A stretch of DNA of 64,000 nucleotides from NCBI GenBank assembly GCA_965285935.1, contig OZ260667.1, positions 63,674,001-63,738,000 on the forward strand. Reading direction: 5' to 3'. A model generated the notes under the pieces. It was not told the origin of the DNA. It did no database searches and saw nothing but the letters and a program-made list of their open reading frames with translations. Position 1 is the stretch's first letter. Each line of letters starts with the position of its first letter. Position numbers and translations under genes: made by a program. The stretch is from Ophelia neglecta. Lineage: Eukaryota. This document shows, one piece after another, positions 43,666 through 64,000 of this stretch.

Positions 43666-44922
43666 TCAGTCTTTTTTGTCATTTCCAGCCATCCAACAAT
43701 GGTCAAAGCTCCACCAGGACTGGAGGTTATCATATAATTGCGGTGTTTCCGGCGGATGGTGGGCGTATTGGCAGACCTTACACCAGGCCAGGGACTTAGG
43801 GCTGGGAATGTCCCACTCACCCTGCCGTATAACATATGATTTCTTCCAATGTAAATACTCCAAATAAGCCGTGTCATTCTTATTAAGATATTCTAAATAC
43901 TCTGCGAGCTTCTTGACATCCGGGTACTGTTGAATGTGGATAAACGAATGCGGTGGCGCAACCTTCAGGTACTGCTCTATCGGCGGTCCGTCGACTACTG
44001 GTACTACTCCATCGGCCAAAGTTTTCCAGAACTTCTCTGTGATATATTCGTCACAATGAGCGTTCTCCAGAGCCATATAAAACTTAAAGGTCTTCCTCAA
44101 AGCCGTCGAACAAGCTTGATTGCGTCTGCAGGGATGTGGCTTGCCACACTTTCCGTATATAGTAACAGAGAGCTTTGAGACTCTTTTGAATTTATTGATC
44201 CATATAAACCTACGGTGGGCCTGGGTGTTGGGGTTGTTACAGTTACTAGCCACCCACAAGACCTGGCCCGTCCTGAGGGACATGTCCATCCAGTCGCTGT
44301 CCTGTTCCCCGGCCATCTCGGACGTCCTGGCTAACATGAACCCGTATGGGAAATGAATATCAGACTTGCTCATATAAGTCATGGACAGATTGAACGTCTT
44401 ATCCAACTGTCGGTAGGCGGCGCCTCTGGTCTTCAAGTGCATTTTACCACTCGTCCCCAGAATGTGGCCATAGACAGGAGTCTCTTTTGTCATAAAAACC
44501 CACAGTTGGTTCCTTGGTCGACTGAATATCATAGACAAATCATGAAATTGGCCCCAAGGAAGATGAAACATGACAATGTCGCTTTTATAGAAAAGTGATC
44601 GTTCTTTTGTTATATGACATCGGTAAGGACAGAAGCTCTGGTTTATGTCCGGCTGTACATCCGTCCGCACGAATGGCCAGTTTTCGAAGTCATACCAGTT
44701 ATTCCAAGTCAGAATGTACTTGTATTCGCTCTCCGGTGCTGCCGAGGAAGTGGAATTCATAGACAGATATTTGAAATGTTCAGCGTTGACCAAAGTGGGT
44801 TGATAACTGTTTGTCCCATTTCGAAATATTGTCAAGTATAAAAATGTACTGACAATAAAACTAAGAGCCACACAGAGCTGAGTCATTTGCCGGGAACATT
44901 CCAGATTGACCGTACCAACCAT
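43666..44922 (-). CDS. Alpha-(1,3)-fucosyltransferase, GT10 family, copy A (single coding exon)
   Basis: Type II TM anchor (LCVALSFIVSTFLYLTIF); motifs ILTW, CHIT.ERS, DIVMFH, WVFMTKETP, FNLSMTY, WVASNC, FKFYMALENAHCDEYITEKFW, GVVPVV, YLEYLHW. Start placed at the ATG shared with copy B; another in-frame ATG lies at 44928. Confidence 0.93.
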   Translation of the reverse strand: MVGTVNLECSRQMTQLCVALSFIVSTFLYLTIFRNGTNSYQPTLVNAEHFKYLSMNSTSSAAPESEYKYILTWNNWYDFENWPFVRTDVQPDINQSFCPYRCHITKERSLFYKSDIVMFHLPWGQFHDLSMIFSRPRNQLWVFMTKETPVYGHILGTSGKMHLKTRGAAYRQLDKTFNLSMTYMSKSDIHFPYGFMLARTSEMAGEQDSDWMDMSLRTGQVLWVASNCNNPNTQAHRRFIWINKFKRVSKLSVTIYGKCGKPHPCRRNQACSTALRKTFKFYMALENAHCDEYITEKFWKTLADGVVPVVDGPPIEQYLKVAPPHSFIHIQQYPDVKKLAEYLEYLNKNDTAYLEYLHWKKSYVIRQGEWDIPSPKSLAWCKVCQYAHHPPETPQLYDNLQSWWSFDHCWMAGNDKKD

Positions 44923-46578
44923 TTCCATAAGCCCAGGTTTGTATATCACTAACCCAAAGTCTATTTTTTCTTACCCCAGGTCAATATTTCACTAGTCCTA
45001 TGTCTGTGTTTTTCGTCAGAAATACATGTTTCTTCCGGGCCTTAAGATCTGTAGGTGTATTACGGAGGTCTGCAGTCCACTTGTTCACTGCTGTGAGTCA
45101 ATCAAAGGACATGGAAACAACCTGCATTGAGAACATTACAATGGTGTGTATTGCGGAAGACACCTATGGACTTGACGGTGCTGTATGGCCCCGGCGAGGG
45201 AGCAAAACATGTAAAATGGCAACTTGTTCATAAGCCTCTAGCAAAAAAAAATTTACATTTTCAATGCCGATTTTTTTTTTCCTTAATATTTAGGCCATAG
45301 AACTTGGGCGGATATTTGTTGCTAATATGTGATAAAAGGGCCCAATCGCCTTGATTTGACAAATAAAAGATATGAATTAATCTAGTTCCTTGTCACCACA
45401 TGGCGGACCAGGATTAATCCATATTTACATGGACCGCTTAATGATTCATGTCAAAGACATTTAGTGAAGTATTTCCGAACATTGATTGAAAATGGATCAT
45501 TTACAAAAGATCTAGTTACACATTTGATAATGATGTTCATAAATTGATTATTTTTTCTATTGTAGTCTCAATATGTGTTGCCAATCTTAAGCGCCAACTA
45601 TTGCTAGCAACAAACTTGTCATTATTGTCTGCGATAGCTCGGACCTCAGATATTTGTCCCTGACGGTACCAAATCCCGTTGTCGGCCCGACTACTGCCCT
45701 CCTCCCCACCCCCGATTGTTGACCACGGCCCCTTCCGACACTGTGCGCCCCCTGCGATATGTAGGAACGCGGATATATGGCTTTGAACAATGACCGTTGA
45801 ATATAACACAGAGTGATAGTTCCCCGCTCACTCACATTGTCAGCTATTTCCCACTATATTTCATAAAAGGGATATTTTTAAACAACCATGCCTATCTTTA
45901 TCGCAACATATATATGTTGCCATGCAAACACCAGCTTATTAACCATCTGTGGACACCCGATAGCTCAAAAAACGGCAAATAATTCCCCCCACAATGCCAC
46001 GGCCAGAACTTGACAACCCTGTTATACATTATTGTACAAAATTGAGGATCCGGGCTGTATCTCAGAAAGTCCACCTACCTTTATTTTGAATTCGCTAGAT
46101 TGTATGCCCTTATGCGCATGCGTACAAGTGTATATCTCGGCCCGTTTGCGGGACCCTGTTGTACATTAATCAACATGGCTGATCCGGTCCATATGTCAGG
46201 AATTCCATCTACCTTTATTCTGAATTCACTCCACACCAGGTAGCTAATGTATCGGAGACTATGGCTGTACACACGGACCTAAAGACAATGACTGGTACAG
46301 TGCCGCTTACATTGGGCGGTCCATTTGGTGAAGTAAATATCTCAAGTCTATGGGTATTAAAAATAGTCACGTTCTGTTAGGTGAACTAAGCGCTAGCTCT
46401 ACAGTACGTGGCCTACCAGCCGAGGTAAGTAGCCAGGGACCAGTCTGTGGATGTCCCCGGGGCGGCGAGAGCGCTATCTTTGTATTTAATTTTAGTATGT
46501 GCGTGTGAGCGCATGTGTTGCATGACGTTGTAACGGATAGGTGTTCATGTGTGCTAGGTACATGCTTTTTATTTGATA

Positions 46579-50293: not shown

Positions 50294-51499
50294 TCAATGT
50301 TTGTTCAATAGTTTATCTCGTTTTGGACTTTCCAGTGTGTTATTTATCCATTCCGGTCTCATGCATGGCAAACCTCGTGCGATTTGGAATTCCCTCGGCT
50401 GGCATCTCCGTTTCGGGACTGTCCTCTTCTGTAACTCGATTGTTTTGTTTAGTGTACGGACTGTCCGCCAGGGGGCGCACATTGACCTCCCGTGTGAGAT
50501 GTAGTATTTCCCGATCAGGTCTTTATTAATACACACATCGGTGGAATTCCATCCAGTCTTATTGCCCTCACTTCCGGTTTGATGAAGGTCAAGGATGGTG
50601 GAGGAGGCGTCGATTAAAGTGAAATTCCAATATAAAGTCTTGGCAATCAGCCAATTATCATAACCCGGGCGACCTAGCACAAACTCAGGAACCTCTTTCC
50701 ATGGAAACTTGCCCGGTGACGTAATGAAATAGTCGTGTGCGTACGCACCCCCCGGTATCCCCTGTTCAGAAATGGTCCTAATACCGTCAAGGTTACCTGC
50801 GTCCACAGTGGTATTTGTTATATTCAAATTAGTTCTGAGACCGACCAAAAGAAACGATTTTGTCGTCATATTAAGGATACTTTTCAGTGTCTCCACCAGG
50901 CTAAGGTCAAAGAGGTTATCAGCGTTAGCAAACCCATAGAAAGGCGTGGGGTCGTCTTTATCACTCATGGCATCAATAAACAGCTCCTTTAAGACCGGAA
51001 TTCCCCGGATTTCCTTCGGCGCAGTCCGTACACCCCAACCCGGATGCTGTAGCGCCACCTTCCGCCACTTCTCGCTGTCCGTACTGGACATGTACAACAC
51101 AGGTTTTATCCACGGACTTAGAGCAGCCCAGTTTTTTATCGTATTGCGATGTATTTCATCCCTATCTGGCGTATCTTTAATGGTGGTAATCAGTGTCAAC
51201 AGAGGGCGCCCTTCCGTGTTAAATACACCAATCGGCATCCGGTTCCTAATATTAGTATTTATAACTTCTAACACACTTTTTACATACATCCTATCAGGCT
51301 GTTCAACTCTGTCCGAATCAGACAGTTCCTTAACTCGAAGTTTATTGGAACTCCTAATAACACCTGCGTAGAAGTTAAATATCACAACAAACGTGACAGC
51401 AAACACTACTCCGGTCCTCTTCCTAGTAAAGCAGACGTGTAGAGTATTTGTGAAACAAACACACCACCTCCCGTACACACTGGTCATCCGGTAAGACAT
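50294..51499 (-). CDS. Uncharacterised type II membrane protein, putative GT-A-like glycosyltransferase
   Basis: ~400-aa single-exon ORF. Basic residues precede a TM segment (GVVFAVTFVVIFNFYAGVI), then a stem and a globular domain with FYGFANADNLFD, LLVGLRTN, DYFIT, GRPGYDNWL and IDASxTIxxLHQ. First ATG at 51499. Function is inferred. Confidence 0.75.
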   Translation of the reverse strand: MSYRMTSVYGRWCVCFTNTLHVCFTRKRTGVVFAVTFVVIFNFYAGVIRSSNKLRVKELSDSDRVEQPDRMYVKSVLEVINTNIRNRMPIGVFNTEGRPLLTLITTIKDTPDRDEIHRNTIKNWAALSPWIKPVLYMSSTDSEKWRKVALQHPGWGVRTAPKEIRGIPVLKELFIDAMSDKDDPTPFYGFANADNLFDLSLVETLKSILNMTTKSFLLVGLRTNLNITNTTVDAGNLDGIRTISEQGIPGGAYAHDYFITSPGKFPWKEVPEFVLGRPGYDNWLIAKTLYWNFTLIDASSTILDLHQTGSEGNKTGWNSTDVCINKDLIGKYYISHGRSMCAPWRTVRTLNKTIELQKRTVPKRRCQPREFQIARGLPCMRPEWINNTLESPKRDKLLNKH

Positions 51500-52836
51500 G
51501 CTTGATGAGAATGAAAGGGCGCGTCTTAACAACAGAAATATTCTAACCACGATCCTGGTGTCTTCAAACTGGGACTGTCTAGATTAAATGATGTATTGTG
51601 CCGACAGTCCAGTCTGCCTCGAAGTCGGTGGCTTCGCCTGGTGATTGAGATACTGTCTGTGGCTAGTATTAGACTCTCAATGAAACTCCTGACACAGTTA
51701 TGAAAGCCGTCGTGTTGGTCGGTAAGGTCAATATATTGTCTCGACTTCCACTAGAACAATCTCCTCCGTAAAACGTATCTCTGACGCTTTATTATAATAG
51801 CTCCAAGCAATTTGGGGATAATTGACATAATACTGGCAAGTTTAATACACCGTGAACCATGACGCTGTGAAGCCAGGCGGATTATGGGTACGGAGGGGAA
51901 GGCGTGGCAAGAAAGGGGGATGGGAGGCGGCGGAGAGAGGAAGGGCGGGGGAGGGACGGTGAGAAGGGGGGGGGAGGAGGGTTTCTGGGGAAGGAGGGGG
52001 CGGGGGGGGGGGCGGTGAGAAGGGGGATAGGAGGGTGATTGGGGGAGGAAGGGGCGCTGGGAGGGGCCTTTTCCATGATAGATGGAGAGATGTTACACCC
52101 TATAGAAGTAAACACCAGCCTCACACTTCCCGGCCTTCCCACTCAACATAGAAGCGCCCACCTCATCACTTCGCCCTTGGCCTCCCTGTCGACAGCCTAG
52201 CTCCACATGTTGCAAACAAACACTAACCTTCTATGCTCTATTGTCAACCATTTAACGTGAGCAGCCAACCGTGACGCCCACAGTGCTAATAACTAGACCT
52301 GATACATGCTGAACAGAACCGCGGTCACTGTGTCTATTGTCTCCCAACTAATTAGAATTGACATTTCGTAATTGCAATCTGCGCTGTATAGGAACAATAC
52401 TAGAAATTCGGCGCGGGAGGGAGGGGGGGGGGTTAATCGTGCGTGCGTGTGTAATTTACGAACAAGAATTCTGAAATGACATGCATATACTAAAATTGTG
52501 TTTGAAATTTTTGTCAAATAGACAGCCTTGTTGAATAGCAAATAGCAATTTTGCATCTTTTCCATGTATTATCGATGTTTCGACCCTACCATTTAATTAA
52601 ATTGTGTGCAAATAAGCTGCTTGTAGGGAGGTGCTAGTTTTGTTGCTACAGAGGCTACAATATCGCCCCTAACCCCCCCCCCCCCCTCCACCACCACAAC
52701 CACCACCCACCCAACCGCCAACCGCCCCCAACCCGACACCTACCAGGCATCCAATGGCGCGTAGTCATTTATCATGCTTATACCATAGATATAGAGAATA
52801 TATGGATTATACATACCTATGCTTATACCGCAGTGT

Positions 52837-55800
52837 GCAGGAATGAAAATTCGCGCTATTACTGGTTTAACCCTATATGCCCTATGTATCTTACCTGCAC
52901 TCACGGCCTACTCTCACTCTCCTTTTTGCTATTCTCTTACTTGTATTCGAAAAGCTTACTTTTTTGAAAAAATTACTGGAGAAGAAGTTGTGTGATATGA
53001 ATTCACAATATAGTTATGAAAGGAGTTAAGGCCTTGTAAGTAACTCCTGCTCAAGTTTGTATACGTGACGTTAACTCCGCCATACTTGTGTAAAGGTAGT
53101 TGTCGGCGATTGATTCATTGTTTTAAGATGATATAGTAACATGGAATAATGGCAAAGCTAATTATTATAATAGAAAACTCTCTATACTAACTGTGCTTGA
53201 TGTTAAGTACCAATCAGTCGGGAGTAGTTAAACGCAGGGGATCCAGGGGAATGGAGGACACATGTCCTATTATTTCATTAAACTGGATCTATATGTAAGT
53301 AATCACACAAACAGGTACAATGTATTTATAGTGTTGTATAGTGTATGTACTTTGTATCGACAGGTCTGAAACAAGTGAGTCTAGACCTAGAATTGGTGTG
53401 AGCCAGAATGGCGTATTTTATTTATCATAATTATCACATAGTATAGTGATTGCAAGACATATTAAGTATAAGAACGAATGAGATCATCGTATACTTGTTG
53501 GATATCTCGTGTATCATTTGTAGTCATCATATTATAAGTAGAAATTCATATCAGTCTTTTTTGCCATATCCAGCCATCCGACAATGGTCAAAGCTCCACC
53601 AGGACTGGAGGTTATCATAGACTTGCGGTGTTTCCGGCGGATGGTGGGCGTATTGGCAGACCTTACACCAGGCCATGGACTTGGGGCTGGGAATGTCCCA
53701 CTCATTCTGCCGTATAACATATGATTTCTTCCATTGTAAATACTCCAAATAAGCCGTGTCGTTTTTATTAAGATATTCTAAATACTCAGCGAGCTTATTG
53801 ACATCCGGGTACTGTTGAATGTGGATAAACGAATGCGGTGGCGCCACCTTCAGGTACTGCTCTATCGGTGGTCCATCAACTACTGCTACTACTCCAGCGG
53901 CCAAAGAGTTCCAGAACTTCTCTGTGATATATTCATCACAATGAGCGTTCTCCAGAGCCATATAAAACTTGAAAGTTCTCCTCAAGGCCCCCGAACAAGC
54001 TTGATTCCGTCTGCAGGGATCTGGCTGGCCACACTTCCCATATATAGTGACCGTCAGCCGTGTAACACTTTTGAACTTGTTGATCCACATGAATCTGCTA
54101 TGGGCCAGTGTGTTTGGATTGTTACAGTTACTGGCCACCCACAACACATTGCCCGTCCTGAGGGACATGTCCATCCAGTCGTTATCCTGTTCCCCGGCCA
54201 TCTCGGAGGTCTTAGTTAGCATGAACCCGTATGGGAAATGAATATCAGACTTGCTCATATAAGTCATGGACAGATTGAACCTGTTAACCAACTGTCGGTA
54301 GCCGGCGCCTCTGGTCTTCATATGCATTTTACCACTCGTCACCAGAATCCGGCCATAGACAGGAGTCTCTTTTGACATAAAAACCCACAGTTGGTTTCTT
54401 GGTCGACTGAATATCATGGACAAATCATGAGATTGGCCCCAAGGAAGATGAAACATGACAATGTCGCTTTTATAGAAAAGTGATCGGTCTTTGGTTATAT
54501 GACATCGGTAAGGACAGAAGCTCTGGTTGATGTCTGGCTGTACATACGTCCGCACGAATGGCCAGTTTTCGAAGTTATACCAGTTATTCCAAGTCAGAAT
54601 GTACTTGTACTCGCTCTCCGGTGCTGCCGAGGAAGTAGAATTCACAGTCAGATATTTGAAATGTCCAGTGTTGACCAAAGTGGGTTGATAACTGTTGGTC
54701 CCATTTCGAAATATTGTCAAGTATAAAAATGTACTGACAATAAAACTAAGGACCACACAGAACTGAGTTGTTTGCCGGGAACATTCCAGATTGACCGTAC
54801 CAACCATTTCCACACGCCCAGGTCTGTATATCACTCACCCAAAGCCCATTTTTTTCTGACCCCAGGTCAATATTTCACTAGTCCTATGTCTGTTTTTTTT
54901 CTTCAGAAATACAGGTTTCTTCCGGGCCCTTAAGATCTGTAGGTGTATTATGGACGTTTTCATTCCTCTTGTACACTGCTGTGCGTCAAGCAAAGGACAT
55001 GGAAACAACCTGCATTGAGAACATTACAATTGTGTGTATTGCGGTATACACCTATGGATTTGATGGTGCTGTATGGCCCAGCGAGGGAGCAAAACATGTT
55101 AAATCGCCACTTATCCATGAGCCTCTAGCAAAATAAAGTTTACATTTTCAATGCCGATTTTTTTCTGCCTTAATATTTAGGCCATAGAAGTTGGTGCGGA
55201 TATTTGTTGTGAATATGTGATAAAAGGGCCCAATCGCCTTGATTTGACAAGATAAAGATATGAATAAATTTAGTTCCTTAACACCACATGGCGGACCAGG
55301 ATTAATCCCTTGGATATTTACATGGACCGCTTAATGAATTAATTTCACAAAGATTTAGTGATGCATTTCCGAATACTGATTGAAATTGGATCATTTACAA
55401 GAGATCTAGTTACACATTTGATAATGATGTTCATTAATTATTTATTTATTTCTATTCCAGTCTCAATATATGTTGCCAATCTTAAGCGCCAACTATTGCT
55501 AGCAACAAACTTGTCATTATTGTCTGCGATAGCTAGGACCTCAGATATTTGTCCCTGAACAATAACAGTTAGGTCAGACACGGAGGTGTATTACCTGACA
55601 TTTGTATACATTGATTAACATTGAGTATTCGGGCCATACCTCATGCCGAAAGTCCACCTACCTTAATTCTGAAATCGCTAACAACCATGCCTATCTTTAT
55701 CGCAAATATATCTCAGGAAGTTCACCTACTTTAATTCCGAAATCGCTATATAGTATACTCTTATGTGCATGTGTACTAGCGTTTACTTTGCCAGATCCAC

Positions 55801-57181
55801 CCCCATTGTCGGGCCGACTGTTGTCCCCCCCCCCCCCCCGCGACTGTGGGCCCTTCCCCCATTGTGGGCTCCCTGCGATGTCTAAGACCGTAGATACGTG
55901 GCATTGAACAATGACCGTTAGATATAACTTGAACTTGACAACCCTATTATACATTAGTGTACAAATTGTGGATCCGATCCATATGTCAGGAATGCCACGA
56001 CCCGAATTTGACAACCCTGTTAAAGGTTACTTTACAAAATTGAGGATCAGCGCCATATCTCAGGATGTTCACCTACCTTTATTCTGAATTTACTAGATTG
56101 TACGCTATTTTGTCTCAGACGGTGTACATGCCGGCCTTCCCGCCTGCCACACCAGGTAGCTAGTGTATCGGAGACTATGGCTGTACATACGGACCTCGAG
56201 ACAAGGACTGGTATAGTGTCGCTTACAATGGGCGGTCCATCTGGTGAAGCAAATATCTCAAGTCAATGGGGATTCAAAATAGTCACGTTCTGTTAGGTGA
56301 ACTAAGCGCAACCTCTACAGTACGTGGCCTGCAAGCCGAGGTTAGTAGCCACAGCCCAGTCTGTGGATGGCGCCCGTGGCAGCGAGAACGCTATCTTTGA
56401 ATTTAATTCTAAGTAAGTTCGTGTGTGTGCACGTGTTGCAAGACGTTGTAGCGGATAGGTGAAACAGTGAAACCTGCCTTACAGACCACCTCTATAATCA
56501 GAACACCTGTCAATTCAGACCACTGATATGAGGACCATGTTGATGCTTTCAATGTTTAATAACCTGTCTAAACGGACCTCCTCTGAAATCAGACCATTAT
56601 TTTATAGTTCCTTTGGTGGTCTTAATTCACAGGTTTCACTGTACAGTGAAACCTGCCTTAAAGACCACCTCTTTTATCAGACCACCTGTCAATTTAGACC
56701 ACTAAGACTAAGGCCTGTGCTATATACTTTCAATGTTAAATAACCTGTCTAAAAAGACCACCTTCAAAATCAGACCAGTTTTTTCCAGTCCTTTTGGTGG
56801 TCATAATTCAAAGATTTCACTGTCCTTATATTGTTTAATGTGTTGTTTGTAAATAGTATGGACGTCCATAAAGACAGGCCTATATGTACGGGAGTGTTCT
56901 TGTGTATGCTTGTGTGTGTAAATGCGACAATTGTATTTTTAGAATGTACATTATAAGTCAGTGATGATTTCAATAAATATTCAACCTAGACCTATAAAGA
57001 CTACAGTGAAACCTGCCTTAAAGACCACCTCTATAATCAGACCACTGGTCAATTCAGACCACTAATATGAGGACTGTTATGTACATTTTCAATGTTAAAT
57101 GACCTGTCTAAACAGACCACCTCTGAAATCAGACCAATATTTTCAAGTCCCTTGGGTGGTCTTAATTCACAGGTTCCATTG
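52837..57181. repeat. Segmental duplication copy B (paralogous to ~42474-47297)
   Basis: Co-linear with copy A but lacks the ~43004-43490 block. Confidence 0.9.
53551..54807 (-). CDS. Alpha-(1,3)-fucosyltransferase, GT10 family, copy B (single coding exon)
   Basis: Same length and motifs as copy A with an open frame (FKFYMALENAHCDEYITEKFW, WVASNC, DIVMFH). Confidence 0.93.
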   Translation of the reverse strand: MVGTVNLECSRQTTQFCVVLSFIVSTFLYLTIFRNGTNSYQPTLVNTGHFKYLTVNSTSSAAPESEYKYILTWNNWYNFENWPFVRTYVQPDINQSFCPYRCHITKDRSLFYKSDIVMFHLPWGQSHDLSMIFSRPRNQLWVFMSKETPVYGRILVTSGKMHMKTRGAGYRQLVNRFNLSMTYMSKSDIHFPYGFMLTKTSEMAGEQDNDWMDMSLRTGNVLWVASNCNNPNTLAHSRFMWINKFKSVTRLTVTIYGKCGQPDPCRRNQACSGALRRTFKFYMALENAHCDEYITEKFWNSLAAGVVAVVDGPPIEQYLKVAPPHSFIHIQQYPDVNKLAEYLEYLNKNDTAYLEYLQWKKSYVIRQNEWDIPSPKSMAWCKVCQYAHHPPETPQVYDNLQSWWSFDHCRMAGYGKKD

Positions 57182-57211
57182 TATATACAATGAAACCTGC
57201 CTTCAAAACCA
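56465..57211. mobile_element. Three Tc1/mariner-type MITEs (56465-56641, 56644-56822, 57004-57181) plus a truncated fourth (57188-57211)
   Basis: Same arrangement as 46579-47297, followed by caatgaaacctgccttcaaaacca. Confidence 0.88.
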
Positions 57212-57223
57212 TAGACTTTGAAA

Positions 57224-57974
57224 ATGGCACGCAGACATCCTAAAACATATCGACTTATTGATATAACTGACCACGACATTAACATACCTCGACCAAATAG
57301 TGTAATACCTTATCAAACACTTACAAAAGAAGACTTTAGAGAATTCACTGACAAATTAGACTACACACCAAAATTTATGCGAGATCTCGATCTCGATGCG
57401 GCTAAAAGATACGATGAGGTTAAAAAGAGAATTGTGATGAATCCAACTTTGTCAGATGCGGATAAAAATTTCTTGTTTAATCAAGCAGATTATAACTTTG
57501 GGTTATTCAAGACTAAGGCACAGGGTAACATAGCTAATACTCCGGGGATTTCAACTGTCGGGAAAGAGAAAAATCGTACAGACTTATTGGCAGTTTTGAA
57601 TAAGAAACAGAGGATAAGACATGAAAACTTATTAGATGAAATAAAGCGGGCAGGAATAGATTGGAACGATAGAGGTTAAATCATTAACCCTCAAATTGGA
57701 AAAACCCATCCCGAATTCTAGCTTGACAGAAATAATCCGATTTCACATGTTAGCCAACAAAAGAGGTACAACAACTCCAAGAGGATTAGAGGTTGTAATT
57801 GGTAAAATAGGGAAGAAGAAAAAAACAAATCGTATTGAAGATTTAGGAGAAGTTCGCGTGGCACGAGCATTAGAAGACAGATTGTTAGATCAAGCAGCAG
57901 CAGCATCCACATCTGGCAAGGACAAGAAGAGGAAAAAACGAGGCAAAGCAAAGAGTCTAGCTGATCTATTATGA
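57224..57974 (+). pseudogene. Maverick accessory ORF upstream of the integrase (one internal stop)
   Basis: ORFs 57218..57679 and 57696..57974 join around IDWNDRG*..GKPIPNSSLTEII..TPRG, a pattern I associate with Maverick accessory proteins; basic C-terminal tail. Confidence 0.55.
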
Positions 57975-57978
57975 TAAA

Positions 57979-59100
57979 ATGCCTCCCAGGAAAAACATAT
58001 ATGTTTCATTTGAAAGGAGATTGAAAAATACATTTTCCAACCCTGCAAGTGCAGGTAGTTTTGGGGGAGTGGATTCTGTTTTTAGAGCGGTCAACTCAGA
58101 TGGAAATAAAAAACATATTTCTCGAGCAAGAGTAAAGAAGTGGCTTTCGGCACGTGACGCATACACTCTTCATAAACCAGCAAGGCGTAAATTCCAAAGA
58201 CGCAAAGTCATTGTTGGAGGAATAAATCAACAATTTTAGGCTGACTTGGTTGATATGAGCTCTGTTGCCAAGAGTAATGACAATAATACATTTATTTTAA
58301 CAGTTATAGACGTCTTGTCTAAATACGCTTTTGTCAAGCCTTTGCTAAACAAAAAAGGAGTGACTGTAACTAAGGCATTCGAGAAAATAATAGACGAAAA
58401 CCTAAATCGAAAGCCCCTCTCTATTCAAACATACAAAGGTTTTGAATTCAATAATTCGACCTTTCATTTGTGGTTGAAAAGAAACAATATCAGCCATTTC
58501 ACGACGCAGGACGAAATTACTAAGGCATCCATTGTTAAAAGATTTAACCATACTCTTAAAAATAAAATGTTTAGAATGTTTGAATCTAAAGCTAATGTTA
58601 GATGGATAGATGATATTCAAAACCTAGTAGATAGCTACAATAATAGTTATCATTCAACATTAAAAATGGCTCCTTCCAATGTCAACAAAAACAATCAACA
58701 TGTGATTTTAGACAGATTATACCCGCCTATTTACAGACTCAGCAAACCTCATTTATACGGCCTGAAGATAGGTGATCAAGTGAGGCTTTTATTTAAAAAC
58801 AGTGTGTTTAGGAAAGGATATTCATAAAATTGGACTAGGGAATTGTTTTAAGTCTCGAACATTAAAACAGATGCACAAGGCATACCGTATTTTATGGTAA
58901 AAGACGTAAAAGGTGAACCCATTCAAGGTACGTTCTATAGAGAAGAAATTCAAAAGACTGAAAAACCGAATTTTTATGCGATTGAAAAGATAATTAAATC
59001 AGAAGGAGATAATCATTATGTTCGATGGTTAGGTTATTCACATCACTTTGACAGTTGGGTGCATGATAGAGCACTGAGAATTTTCAAAAAACACAACATT
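57979..59100 (+). pseudogene. Maverick-type retroviral-like integrase with C-terminal chromodomain (inactivated)
   Basis: YTLHKPARRKF, (Q)ADLVDM, ILTVIDVLSKYAF, YNNSYHSTLKMAP, IGDQVR, chromodomain YAIEKII..YVRWLGY..FDSWV. Stops at 58237 and 58825; catalytic QTD is QTY and VERFN is VKRFN. Confidence 0.92.
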
Positions 59101-59393
59101 AATCTGTATTGTATAATAATAAAAATAGTGCGTTATATCTACATCATTGGAGTTATTGCATTAATTACCAAGGCATTGGGGGAAAGGTGAGGTATATAAA
59201 TATACAGTAAAGAGATACCTACAGTCAGTGCGCTTCCTGTTGCAACTGAGAGTATTACTTTATTCATCTTATAAATGGACAACATAAACTATGTAAAAGC
59301 ACAGAGCGGAACATAGGTATATTTAATACGTTTCCTATTGCCACTCAACGTTCAAAGGTTTCTTCACAAGAAGACTGATTCGGAATAAGAAAT

Positions 59394-61278
59394 ATGAGTA
59401 AGGAAAGTTTTAACGTCATTGTAAAATCTAACGCTTCAGGCACAAGATTTCCGGATAACAGAATATCACACTTTTATAACGAACTAGCAGCAAATATACA
59501 TCTTGAAGGTGACTGGGAAGTAGGATTGAGTTCGGTGGCTTACCCTAAATCATGGACAAATATTCCTGATGATAAAGGGACAGCTATTCAATTAATTCCT
59601 AACATAAAGTACAAACTACACGTTTCTGGACATACTTGGCAACCTGATTACGATTCATATTCAATTGTTTGTGAAAGACGATGGCCATCCGGATCGTATA
59701 CTACTGCTGCGTCTGTTATAGAGACAATGTACATGGTCGGTTCCAAGATCGCAATTGCACGACATCCTGAATTTCCTGCAGACAAATTTTTATCTATAAG
59801 TCTTACTGATGTCTTCACAATGGATTACGATAAGAATAAATCTAAATTCGCCTACAAAATGAAAAAAAAACTATAATATTCCTAGAAGCTTTCATTTTAA
59901 CAGTTTGCTGATTGTTATCCCTCTAAGAAACACCTACGATAAGGAGTATGAAAGTGCTGTGCTTTTAGGAGAACTGTTGGGCTTTGAACGAAAGGATGAT
60001 AGATATTAATTCAGGGTTAGGAGAAGGGAAGAACTTAGTCCAAATGTATGTCTGTTGAAACATGATATCGATAATTTATTGTTAGAATGCTCTGGCATTG
60101 TCACTCCGTGGTCAGTAGGGGATCGATATAGACCTCTCCTAGCTGTAGTACCAGCAAAAATGGGTAGTGATGGAGATTATATACATCAAGTTATTAAGTC
60201 ACCTATGTTCACACCGGTTCTTGCCTAATTTTTTACCCAAGTAGAGCTCAAGGTGCACGACAGAAAAAATCGAAGAATACCTTTCGGACATTATTCTGGG
60301 CCTTTTGTGGCAAATTTAATATTTAGACAAGTTTCCCAACACGATATACCTAGATCACTGTCTGCTAAAGAACTTTACATATATCTACTCTCCGATTCGA
60401 GTACTCTTCACTACCCAAAATATACAAAAACTAATTTCACCAACGTTCTATATAATCAAATGGTACTTGCAGGACTTTGGAAAGTGGCTATAGCTAGTAT
60501 TGGTTATCAACAATCTTGGTTACATTTAAAGAAAAACCATACAATACTTATCAAAATATATACAGAACATGCTGATTTCACCCCTGCGTCTGAACCGAAA
60601 ACAAACACAGTAATAATATCTAAAGGACAATATTATGACACGAATTCAGTTGAACAACAATGGAATCAATCAAAGGTTAGCATTTTTCAGGAAACTGACT
60701 TAGGAAAACCACTACAAGAGAATACAGTGAGTCTAGGAAGTTTAGTGAAAATGAGATACTTAGAGGGTTCAAGAAGGTTTTGTTTAGCTATTGTAGGCGA
60801 TCCTACATTCAGAGTCAGTAAAGTTGATATTAATTTCAATCTGTACTCTGAAAAAGGTGTTTTGGAAAAAAGACAGTTTAGAAGTTATGGATCTGTTAGG
60901 TATTTATAACTACGCCGATTATGAAAAGCCTATTAATCAAATTACAGTTCAATCAATGGTCAATCCAATTTACATTATCGACGCACCACCAGATGTGCAA
61001 GATAATACTTACAATATATTGATTACATGTGAAATTTAGTTGAACCTATGTTGGTGGGAGACGACTTTAGGTCATTAATGAACGGAGTGCCTATTAAATC
61101 CTGAGAAAATTCCTATATACATTACTCTTTTAAACATAGGCAATACAGGAAAGTTCTTCAGAAAACAATTGATGAAATAAGGGTGAAAATTGTAGACGGC
61201 TCTGGTAATACTATTGACGTTGAAGGAGAGAAACCTACACGGATAGCTCTACATTTTAAACAAGAAGGACAAATATGA
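59394..61278 (+). pseudogene. Two fused minor capsid (penton-like) domains, disrupted
   Basis: Domain 1: KSNASGTRFPDNRISHF..LEGDWEVGLSSVAYPKSWTN ... LLGF ... VGDRYRPLL ... IPFGHYSGPFVANLIFR. It continues in frame into domain 2: LLSDSSTLHYPKYTKTNF..LAGLWKVAIASIGY ... VGDDFRSLM ... IALHFK. Several stops and frameshifts. Confidence 0.8.
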
Positions 61279-61285
61279 GGTAAAG

Positions 61286-61735
61286 ATGAATGTTACAAAT
61301 ATTACTTTAACCAATTCTCACGGAGAGTCGCCCTCTCATTTCACCGTCAATTTCCAGGACGGACTAGATTTAAAAGTAGGAGAATGGTTCGTAGCCCTAA
61401 CTACAGCATCATTTTCTTTCAAATTAATTCCACAAACAATGATAATAGTGTTAGATATTATCAAACCACTTCAGTTTGGAGACAGTTTACGCCCTATACT
61501 TAGGAACGTAGAATTTACAAATAAGGAGAAGGGAGCTGATATAGAACTTTACGATTCGGAACTGGTATATGTTAAGACCTTTGCCGATAATTACGAACAT
61601 ATTTCTGTGACAATAAGAGATATTAAAGGCCACATCCTTGAAATAAACCCTGATACAACACACTCAACAAATCTAACTTTTAGGCTGAAACAAAAACCAC
61701 TCTTTCACGAGGAAAATAATTTAGAATGGACCTAA
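61286..61735 (+). CDS. Third, minimal penton-like protein (149 aa)
   Basis: SPSHFTVNF..LDL..GEWFVAL followed almost directly by DIIKPLQFGDSLRPILRNV..ISVTIRDIKG..LTFRLK: both halves of the penton motif with no central insertion. Confidence 0.7.
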   Translation: MNVTNITLTNSHGESPSHFTVNFQDGLDLKVGEWFVALTTASFSFKLIPQTMIIVLDIIKPLQFGDSLRPILRNVEFTNKEKGADIELYDSELVYVKTFADNYEHISVTIRDIKGHILEINPDTTHSTNLTFRLKQKPLFHEENNLEWT

Positions 61736-61777
61736 AAAACAACAAACCGGCTTGAGAGTGTTTGGTGTTAAGTCGTA

Positions 61778-62134
61778 ATGGAATTAGAGGAAACACACCA
61801 GGAGACAGAAACGGCTTACATCGGGAATGACAAAACCGATGACATAAACAATTTACTCTTGATGAATGATAACGACGGAATTGAACACGGAGAGTGGGAA
61901 TGGAGTAGCAGAGATCCTAAAAGGAATTTATGGGTTTTCATACTCCAATTTCTAGTCATATACGGAATGCTAGCAGCCGTTACAGTTACAAGTCTGATAA
62001 ATTTGTCTACCAAATCAGATGGACGTGAAATATGGGTTGGCCTCCTCAGTTGGGTGATCGGAATTATTTGCCCTACCCCAACACAAATGAAACAACTAAA
62101 CCACGCGAACGCTGGAGTGAAACACAAACAATAA
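61778..62134 (+). CDS. Small two-TM membrane protein of the Maverick segment
   Basis: Acidic N-terminus, then LWVFILQFLVIYGMLAAVTVTSLINLS and IWVGLLSWVIGIICPTP. Confidence 0.6.
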   Translation: MELEETHQETETAYIGNDKTDDINNLLLMNDNDGIEHGEWEWSSRDPKRNLWVFILQFLVIYGMLAAVTVTSLINLSTKSDGREIWVGLLSWVIGIICPTPTQMKQLNHANAGVKHKQ

Positions 62135-62149
62135 TAGAACAATAGCTGT

Positions 62150-62607
62150 TAAAACAATCGATCAAGTAAAACCTTTGTCAAATCATCAAATTGTAAGAAA
62201 AGTGAAGAGACTGACTAAGCGATTTAGGGGCGTGTATGACATGGATTCTTTACCCAAGAAAAAACTATAAATTACCTTGGGCAATAATTGTTAACACAGA
62301 GCTGGATGACAATGAAAATGGAGGACATTGGATTGTTATGGTATTCGATATTTTTGGACTTGGCCATTACTACGATTCTTATGGAAAACCACTCCTTTAT
62401 AAAAGGTGGAAAAGATTTTTAGACAAAAATAGTCCCAACGGATGGAGCTATGTAAGAACTATATCTCAAAGATTTAATACAGCTACTTGCGGTTATTTAT
62501 GTATTGATTATATCAGACAAAGACTTGCAAAACCTTTAGTTAGTGATAAGTCTATTGTTAGTGATCTAGAAGGAATGAAATCATATAGAAAATATTTAAG
62601 ATATTAG
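62150..62607 (+). pseudogene. Adenovirus-type cysteine (maturation) protease, one frameshift
   Basis: FRGVYDMDSLP in one frame, then IIVNTE..GGHWIV..YYDSYG..Q..TATCGYLC with catalytic H, D, Q and C; frameshift near the A-run at ~62258. Confidence 0.85.
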
Positions 62608-62949
62608 ATATATGTGGTGTAATATTACGAAAACAATAAATCGTTTAAATAACACATACAAATTGTGCTTTTTATTGATAACACAAGCATAGTTTTTTAC
62701 ACATACAACTTTTTTAGATGGTTATATTGTACTAAATTCGTGTACTACAAAAGTAAAACAATAGACTCGACAGTTGGTCTGGAGTGAATTACAGAATATG
62801 TGAACAAAATTATTCATTGATCATACAAACACAGGACTAACGACAATGAGCACAAACTACTGATTTTCCAATATTACTAGCAATATGAAAATGTTACTTT
62901 TATATAGCAGATAATTACATCAACCTATTAGCTGTGTCGGACGCAAAAG

Positions 62950-63252
62950 TCAAGCTACAAAAACTATGCAACCATAACCTATTATACGAATGGAAAGAGA
63001 CATGCTGAAACAAGTTTCACTTACTGTTGTATGAGAGTAGCCTGAACTATCAAATATGCTTTCTATATCTAATTGAACATTCTCCAGACCTCTTTTGACC
63101 GAGGTAGTTAGCCTATGCAACTGATTCAAACTGTCACCTCCCTCAAAAGGCTTTGATACGCAGTTAGTGGATTGAAGTTTTTCCACTATAATAACAAGCA
63201 TACTGGATATTTTAGTGCCTAGGCACAGAATATCTTCAGTCACCTCTTCCAT
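62950..63252 (-). CDS. Hypothetical 100-aa ORF convergent on the protease, possibly part of the Maverick segment
   Basis: ATG-initiated ORF; opposed AATAAA (~62635) and TTTATT (~62671) lie between it and the protease. No recognised motif. Confidence 0.25.
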   Translation of the reverse strand: MEEVTEDILCLGTKISSMLVIIVEKLQSTNCVSKPFEGGDSLNQLHRLTTSVKRGLENVQLDIESIFDSSGYSHTTVSETCFSMSLSIRIIGYGCIVFVA

Positions 63253-63419
63253 AGCTATCTTATCTCTATGAGTCTAAGAGGCCATGGTCTGTCTTTCTAA
63301 AACTTTTATAATGTAATGAAAACTTTTTATACTGCTTCAGAAGATGAAATCAGTCCGTTTAAATAGAAAACAGAATTCAACGACTTCCAACACTTATTTC
63401 GCCCAACTACGGCTTTCAC

Positions 63420-64000
63420 TATAAATTTCTTGGTATTTGGTATTTGGTTTGACCAGCACCTAAATTGGCAAACAAATACAGATATTAAATGCAAAAAGCT
63501 TGCTCAACTTAACGGTATTCTAAATCGACTCAAATTCCAGCTCCCAGGTGATGTCCTAAAAATTATTTATTCTGCCTTGATTCAACCACACCTTACATGT
63601 GGCCTTCTGGTGTGGCACAATGACTATTCATCTAACACAAACCGATTATCGTCTTTGCAAAAGAGGTCCATGCGTATCATCGATAAGGCACATTTCATTT
63701 CTCATACCGACCCTATTTTTAAAAGACTTCGCATCCTTAAACTTGAAGACTTGTTTATAAAACAGTGTGTTTCCCTGTACAATAAGGCCTTGGTTGGTGA
63801 CTGCCCCAGGTTTCTTGTCCAGCGTCTAGTGACCAATGCGACTTCTCACAGGTATAACACTAGGAACAGAACTGGTATTGAATTGCCAAACATGAGAACG
63901 AATGTTCTGCGACAGTGTATTTCCTATAAAATACACCTTGTGAATAGTTTCATCACTGCTAAGAAGTGGTGCAACAAAAACATAACTGAACTTAAAAAGG
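63420..64000 (+). mobile_element. 5'-truncated L2/Crack-type LINE, C-terminal part of ORF2
   Basis: KFLGIW..FDQHLNW..GILNRLK..LKIIYSALIQPHL..LQKRSMRII..HTDPIFKRLRILKLEDL..HRYNTR; runs off the window. Confidence 0.85.

Follow-up and report, generated by a model that had tools for sequence, protein, structure and literature searches.

How could an element whose penton region encodes three penton-like domains, two of them joined in one protein, build a vertex of five-fold symmetry? The question is raised by the window analyzed here, a stretch of 64,000 nucleotides from Ophelia neglecta (contig OZ260667.1, positions 63,674,001 to 63,738,000 of the forward strand), in which an earlier note had read an endogenous Maverick-like virus with a fused tandem pair of pentons followed by a minimal third copy. 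From this layout, the note had proposed a lineage with a hetero-oligomeric or protease-processed vertex. The genome that we searched comprises 762 Mb in 223 contigs, and the window lies on the contig designated C12.

A decayed Maverick copy with three penton domains

The following features were identified in the window.

57212..62964, + strand: decayed remnant from the interior of a family A Maverick, with 89-97% DNA identity to other copies
57215..57974, + strand: broken gene 5' of the integrase, positional counterpart of a 282/285-aa ORF in families B and C
57961..59190, + strand: stop-interrupted gene of a retroviral-type integrase with a chromodomain at its C-terminus (Pfam rve E 8.6e-6, Chromo E 0.02)
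59394..60327, + strand: broken first half of the double gene, penton domain D1, whose jelly roll carries a central insertion (tblastn with the natural 616- and 652-aa proteins)
60328..60372, + strand: in-frame linker of about 15 residues without glycine or stop (frame reading)
60373..61278, + strand: broken second half of the double gene, penton domain D2, whose jelly roll also carries a central insertion (tblastn with sister proteins)
61286..61735, + strand: D3, minimal penton jelly roll without insertion, separate open gene of 149 aa (AlphaFold, VIA)
61778..62134, + strand: small predicted membrane protein of 118 aa (hydropathy peak at residues 50-77)
62130..62607, + strand: putative adenain-like cysteine protease gene, broken by frameshift (motifs GGHW, YYDSYG and QRFNTATCG)

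Gene content and shared family copies bear out the assignment to a Maverick-type element, of which the window copy is a truncated fossil of about 6 kb. According to the ORF list, no protein-primed DNA polymerase B (pPolB), ATPase or major capsid gene lies within this copy, and no long inverted repeat was found across positions 55000-64000 of the window, so that the copy is without a terminal inverted repeat. What is left reads, on the + strand, as a broken gene, an rve integrase-chromodomain, the penton region, the small membrane protein and the protease-like gene. The integrase shares 65% DNA identity with that of family B, and the broken gene 5' of it gave no Pfam match. Neither did the small membrane protein, whose position is kept in families A, B and C and whose homologs in B and C match each other at E 5e-24. 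Pfam searches with the protease-like genes were also without a match; the three motifs listed are those that we take to be typical of adenain-like proteases, and the window gene occupies the same position as the 156/153-aa genes of families B/C.

A tandem repeat of about 180 bp (window 56463-57211) adjoins the left end of the Maverick fragment. On its 3' side lies an open frame (63367-64000, +) that has no Pfam match and presumably resembles the tail of a LINE reverse transcriptase. Elsewhere, the window holds two intronless fucosyltransferase genes at 43666-44970 and 53551-54834 (both - strand; Pfam Glyco_transf_10, E 5e-53 and 1e-51), with a 429-aa ORF without Pfam match between them (50294-51583, -). 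Beyond the window end, at a distance of 3-20 kb (G000:C12:63741047-63758107), lies a Maverick copy of family C that has a long pPolB-like frame (46% to the family B pPolB), a major-capsid-like gene and an open double.

Three penton-like units do indeed stand consecutively at 59394-61735 (+). The double gene extends over 59394-61278 and is broken by stops at 59874, 60007, 60226, 60907, 61037 and 61102 and by several frame changes, and an open frame at 60229-60909 joins D1 and D2 in frame across the linker. D3 starts 7 bases 3' of the end of the double gene. The 616-aa protein of a sister family aligns to the window copy over residues 6-616 (E 9e-82) and D1 matches D2 at E ~1e-17; the penton repeat is thus not due to chance.

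Eight family A copies beyond the window were compared at the D1-D2 junction, which is covered in six of them and falls in a region absent from the other two. It is open and in frame in four of the six and carries a frameshifting indel in two, and none of the six has a stop at the in-frame junction. The stop after D2 is present in the window and in six of the eight other copies, the remaining two having a 1-nt indel in one case and no stop in the other. A whole open double gene was found in none of the nine family A copies examined. The junction comparison rules out a frameshift artefact as the source of the fusion, and an assembly artefact is ruled out because doubles with open frames occur on many contigs and among public proteins. 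We also considered whether D3 belongs to a triple fusion; such a fusion was found in one decayed copy only (L004/L024), and we reject this reading. The locus holds three jelly-roll penton domains, with a real in-frame fusion of D1 to D2 and a separate D3.

Double pentons in sister families and public sequences

The fusion was confirmed in sister families in which the double gene is unbroken. A genome search with the first 160 residues matched 10 places with an open frame of 662 codons, one of which has a stop within the matched part, and 7 places with a frame of 618 codons. Among copies read directly, the double is open in all four of family B and in five of eight of family C, the other three C copies being broken. 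Family C has the order integrase, 616-aa double, 144-aa minimal penton, membrane protein and protease, and family B the order integrase, 327 aa, 327 aa, 652-aa double, 148-aa minimal penton, membrane protein and protease. Both 327-aa proteins match the domains of the double (E ~1e-8) and both halves of the penton profile, which would give family B five penton-like domains in total. The first of these genes is unchanged in five family B copies and mostly lost together with the integrase in others. Families A, B and C are only ~30% identical, and D3 follows the double in all three.

Upstream, the sister elements carry an A32-like ATPase, a tandem repeat, three genes that run on the opposite strand, one of them major-capsid-like, and pPolB. 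Pfam matches in family B were obtained for the polymerase (DNA_pol_B_2, E 2e-5, just under the cut-off), the retroviral-type integrase (rve, E 7e-9) and the packaging ATPase (Pox_A32, E 7e-7); ATPase-like frames also lie 5' of another family A copy (L046). The 504/540-aa ORFs, candidates for the major-capsid-like gene, gave no match in Pfam and PDB sequence searches and match, at E 1e-11 to 1e-14, an ORF of a metagenome contig that we take to be MCP-like from a motif and its position. No RNA holder was found for the family C genes. In several family B copies (L072-L075, L013, L015 and L018), internal deletion has removed the integrase together with some or all of the penton cluster; that such deletions take the same form at different places suggests non-autonomous derivatives. 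Families B and C also have a short-tandem-repeat array of 1.5-1.8 kb between gene modules (L041:7739-9201, L043:4942-6715).

Ten other Maverick loci of the genome, chosen from 78 matches via the major-capsid-like gene, served for comparison. In nine of them an insertion-less penton is the only penton match, a stand-alone frame of 145-165 codons between the integrase and the major capsid gene, and in the tenth a penton motif lies inside the integrase frame; none of the ten has a double penton. The minimal penton is an ordinary, common Maverick form. At two places (G000:C2:108026626-108039358 and L054), segments of Maverick copies are tandemly repeated ~6 kb apart.

Comparison of seven pairs of double genes gave pN/pS values of 0.09-0.18 in the five pairs with both types of change, one other pair being identical and one having 2 synonymous changes only; for D3, the values were 0.11-0.38 in families B and C (3 pairs) and 0.61 and 1.89 among dead family A copies, all of these pairs sharing a reference copy and being underlain by few changes. 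Judging from these ratios, the copies are under purifying selection.

Fused doubles are not confined to this genome. A profile made from six penton domains matched 9489 representatives at E <=0.001 among 1.84 billion, and the two-domain pattern was seen in 28 of the best 150 public matches, a proportion that overstates the share of doubles, since doubles sum the scores of both domains. In the Atlas, the two clusters nearest to the double (617 and 640 aa; 169 and 139 members) are mostly viral, which we take as a lead only, and 20 cluster look-ups of public doubles yielded no informative names. No double-penton locus was found in the viral contigs scanned, and a metagenome scan gave two loci, neither with a fused double. 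In one metagenome contig (L051:197-4657), four separate penton-like genes follow one another, three of them clear and one weak. In four public doubles (P0040, P0052, P0059 and P0064; 293-417 aa), one or both halves are minimal. A word-indexed search of 426 candidates returned no relative of the three D3 proteins.

An unrooted FastTree tree of 179 domains, on which any number of origins is tentative, placed the D1s and D2s of 11 doubles, including those of families B and C, in two clades (98/98 SH-like support), and such separate clades argue that the two halves are old and specialized. Sixteen other doubles form their own separate D1 and D2 groups, P0017/P0018 and P0022 are placed among single pentons, and the picture is similar on 124 core columns. 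This suggests that fused doubles arose three or more times. Thus the fusion noted earlier is real and, as fused doubles occur in several unrelated lineages, does not mark a single odd lineage.

In the tree on the 124 core columns the three D3s form a clade of their own, with longer branches than the stand-alone minimal pentons. They also lack a strand B-C loop pattern that is present in all nine stand-alone pentons, in 26 of 31 D1s and 29 of 31 D2s, and in only 66 of 114 public single pentons; having been made by hand after inspection of the data, this pattern is a weak criterion.

Predicted folds and proposed assembly of the vertex

The penton domains gave no match in Pfam and PDB sequence searches. 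We modeled the natural 616-aa double by AlphaFold with 27 aligned doubles, which gave a pLDDT of 86.6 and a pTM of 0.84; nowhere but at residues 1-4 and in the linker, residues 302-309 (linker pLDDT <50), was confidence low. Since pTM reached 0.84 despite the low linker score, the model suggests a defined packing of D1 against D2. Its structural matches span either residues 4-300 or 301-616; the halves matched chain 6ncl_a6 of PBCV-1 (Z 14.8, rmsd 3.1, 141 aligned), the penton of mavirus (Z 13.2), that of Sputnik (Z 12.7) and adenovirus penton bases (Z 10-12). The model of the window D3 (pLDDT 91.9) matched the mavirus penton in VIA with Z 13.9 (rmsd 2.2, 131 aligned), followed by Sputnik (Z 13.3) and 6ncl_a6 (Z 12.8), with non-penton chains at 5.9 or below. 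D1, D2 and D3 are all penton jelly rolls, each matching solved pentons (Z 12-15). The strand D-E insertion domain, an optional element of such pentons, is present in D1 and D2 and absent in D3, and the alignment agrees with the earlier description of D3 as devoid of the variable central insertion. Both halves of the double keep the outer insertion and the same core.

Such a double might be cut by the neighboring viral protease to release two single pentons, as the earlier note had envisaged. The putative protease gene lies two genes 3' of the double, the linker is flexible by prediction, and that of family C contains G-K-G, a motif that the mavirus protease is also described as cutting. However, Gly-Gly occurs in only 1 of 31 linkers and the adenain motif, (M/I/L)xGG or (M/I/L)xGxG, in none of the 31; the linkers of family A, the window copy included, and of P0008, P0009 and P0010 have no glycine, and 16 doubles are nearly linker-less. 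The proposal is further weakened by the mavirus protease, which, in the available text, cleaved the major capsid protein and not its own penton (PMC6048507). We consider cleavage of the linker very unlikely, and this part of the earlier proposal is not upheld. In the 16-double lineage, the profile envelopes of the two domains almost touch (0-4 residues), and such near-zero linkers require close packing of D1 and D2.

The reading that we prefer, with a probability of about one in two, is that the window holds a broken copy of a Maverick whose lineage combines the fused double and the separate minimal penton in a mixed five-part vertex. D1 and D2 would remain joined and take two neighboring positions, side by side, of the five-fold ring; that both lie within the ring we infer from the short linkers, the retained crowns and the confident packing. 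As paired domains cannot add up to the five of the ring, a single-domain subunit would be needed to fill it. In families A and C, D3 is the only single found, and the ring could be 2+2+1 or 2+1+1+1. Being without the outer insertion, D3 would make the crown incomplete at its position. The probable benefit would be a vertex of fixed order with several distinct outer surfaces for receptor or fibre binding. The position of D3 after the double in three families of such low identity supports the mixed ring, as do, weakly, the longer branches of D3 and its missing loop pattern. Against it counts the insertion-less penton as the sole penton match in nine of ten other loci, a form that presumably can build a vertex alone.

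Family B, with exactly five domains (1+1+2+1), might even form a fully asymmetric ring, although its count of five may be a coincidence. A bolder version holds that doubles, having evolved repeatedly in animal Mavericks and related viruses, force an ordered asymmetric vertex, and that the family B vertex consists of five different domains, a fully hetero-pentameric form that is not known from eukaryotic viruses; we put this forward tentatively, as possible and rather less probable than not.

The main rival to the mixed ring is a pattern like that of PBCV-1, with small and large pentons at different vertices, which we judge doubtful yet a serious contender. D3 would be an ordinary homo-pentameric penton, and five doubles would form a special two-tier vertex in which one domain lies in the shell and the other is stacked above it or hangs below. 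Minimal pentons do stand alone in other Mavericks of the genome, an archaeal virus has a turret protein of several jelly rolls (4ind), and in PBCV-1 P1v1 occupies the unique vertex and P1 the other 11 (PMC9617893). Yet both halves of the double retain full outer insertions on the same core, and the near-zero linkers of the second lineage would leave little room for stacking. Moreover, 4ind matched one half only (Z 5.1-5.5), no solved chain among the top 50 matches aligned across both jelly rolls, itself a weak absence, and D3 appears more diverged than the stand-alone pentons.

Major capsid proteins are built with two jelly rolls per chain, and a ring made of three doubles would be closed without leftovers. 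The double resembles that architecture in its two-jelly-roll chain and could form a penton-derived pseudo-hexamer, as a decoration or in a specialized facet, with D3 building the vertices. Capsomer variants exist in PBCV-1 (PMC9617893) and in Trimcap viruses (10.64898/2026.06.19.733378). Nevertheless, Foldseek comparison with the double-jelly-roll proteins D13 and that of faustovirus was poor (probability 0.08-0.28, TM ~0.1), no double-jelly-roll protein was among the top VIA matches, and the elements retain a separate major-capsid-like gene, which makes the pseudo-hexamer improbable.

Finally, the extra domains might serve a non-structural function or be non-functional debris of duplication. 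The window copy itself is dead, and Maverick virions are described as never observed (10.64898/2026.06.19.733378, 10.1101/2023.08.22.554363). Open frames in many B and C copies, the purifying selection, the confident penton folds and the layout conserved over three distant families speak against this explanation, which is very unlikely and, as far as debris is concerned, largely excluded.

For adenoviruses, virophages and giant viruses, the penton is described as a ring of five identical subunits. Since a two-domain penton cannot close a ring of five alone if both domains are inside, such pentons point to a vertex that is asymmetric or to some other use of the fold not yet described. The strong selection on elaborate vertex genes lends support to the idea that animal Mavericks form real particles, so far unseen. 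As the double and D3 proteins are small and model well, the vertex question is testable with recombinant proteins.

Comparison with known penton systems

We found no fused tandem penton in the passages of the literature covered, and the fused form may be on record elsewhere, as among the 282 penton entries of Buck et al., in other supplements, in Repbase or in subscription journals. It was equally absent from the available parts of 10.1101/697771, PMC11131425, PMC11161782, 10.64898/2026.10.13.758929, PMC9952930 and 10.1101/2022.07.28.501842. Duplication of pentons as separate genes and the minimal form are already known, so that the earlier description of an unusual three-domain set stands for the fusion and was overstated for the rest. 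Within the literature covered, what is new is that two pentons are fused, that this probably happened repeatedly, and that family B has five penton-like domains.

One of the closest systems is the Maverick/Polinton (adintovirus) itself, with its single penton PX (PMC4028283, Krupovic et al. 2014) and the gene order described in vertebrates (PMC8097293, Barreat and Katzourakis 2021). The likeness extends to the single-jelly-roll penton fold, the gene directly 3' of the integrase, and an element with pPolB, ATPase, major-capsid-like gene and protease-like gene (PMC4028283, PMC8097293). There are three to five penton domains here, two of them fused, and one there (PMC4028283). Unlike in those elements as described, the major-capsid-like gene here lies on the opposite strand near pPolB, outside the integrase-penton-protease module.

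Among adintoviruses, Buck et al. 2024 (10.1101/2024.03.25.586562, PMC11071296) describe two penton genes per genome in Adinto18043 and Adinto10012 and pentons without the DE-loop insert, and Adeno7806 pairs a short penton with a long one. Two penton genes per genome and insertion-less pentons thus have a parallel there, whereas the duplicates are separate ORFs, and a fused pair or a third penton label was not found in the available text. Several members of Trimcap group B of the Polinton-like viruses likewise have two penton copies, and their paralogous capsid proteins are modeled as mixed capsomers; these are, however, protist viruses with three major capsid genes, and their pentons are not described as fused in the part available (10.64898/2026.06.19.733378).

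PBCV-1 resembles the present system in having a small and a crowned penton (P1/P1v1) in one virus, and its chain 6ncl_a6 was among the top structural matches (Z 12.8-14.9). It differs in that its two pentons are unfused homo-pentamers, which occupy different vertices (PMC9617893). For two paralogous jelly-roll subunits in one five-fold ring, as proposed here, the parallel is the tectivirus PR772, whose penton is a hetero-pentamer of 3 P5 and 2 P31 (PMC6750898). In that bacterial virus the subunits are separate chains and a trimeric spike, not a fusion of domains, sets the stoichiometry.
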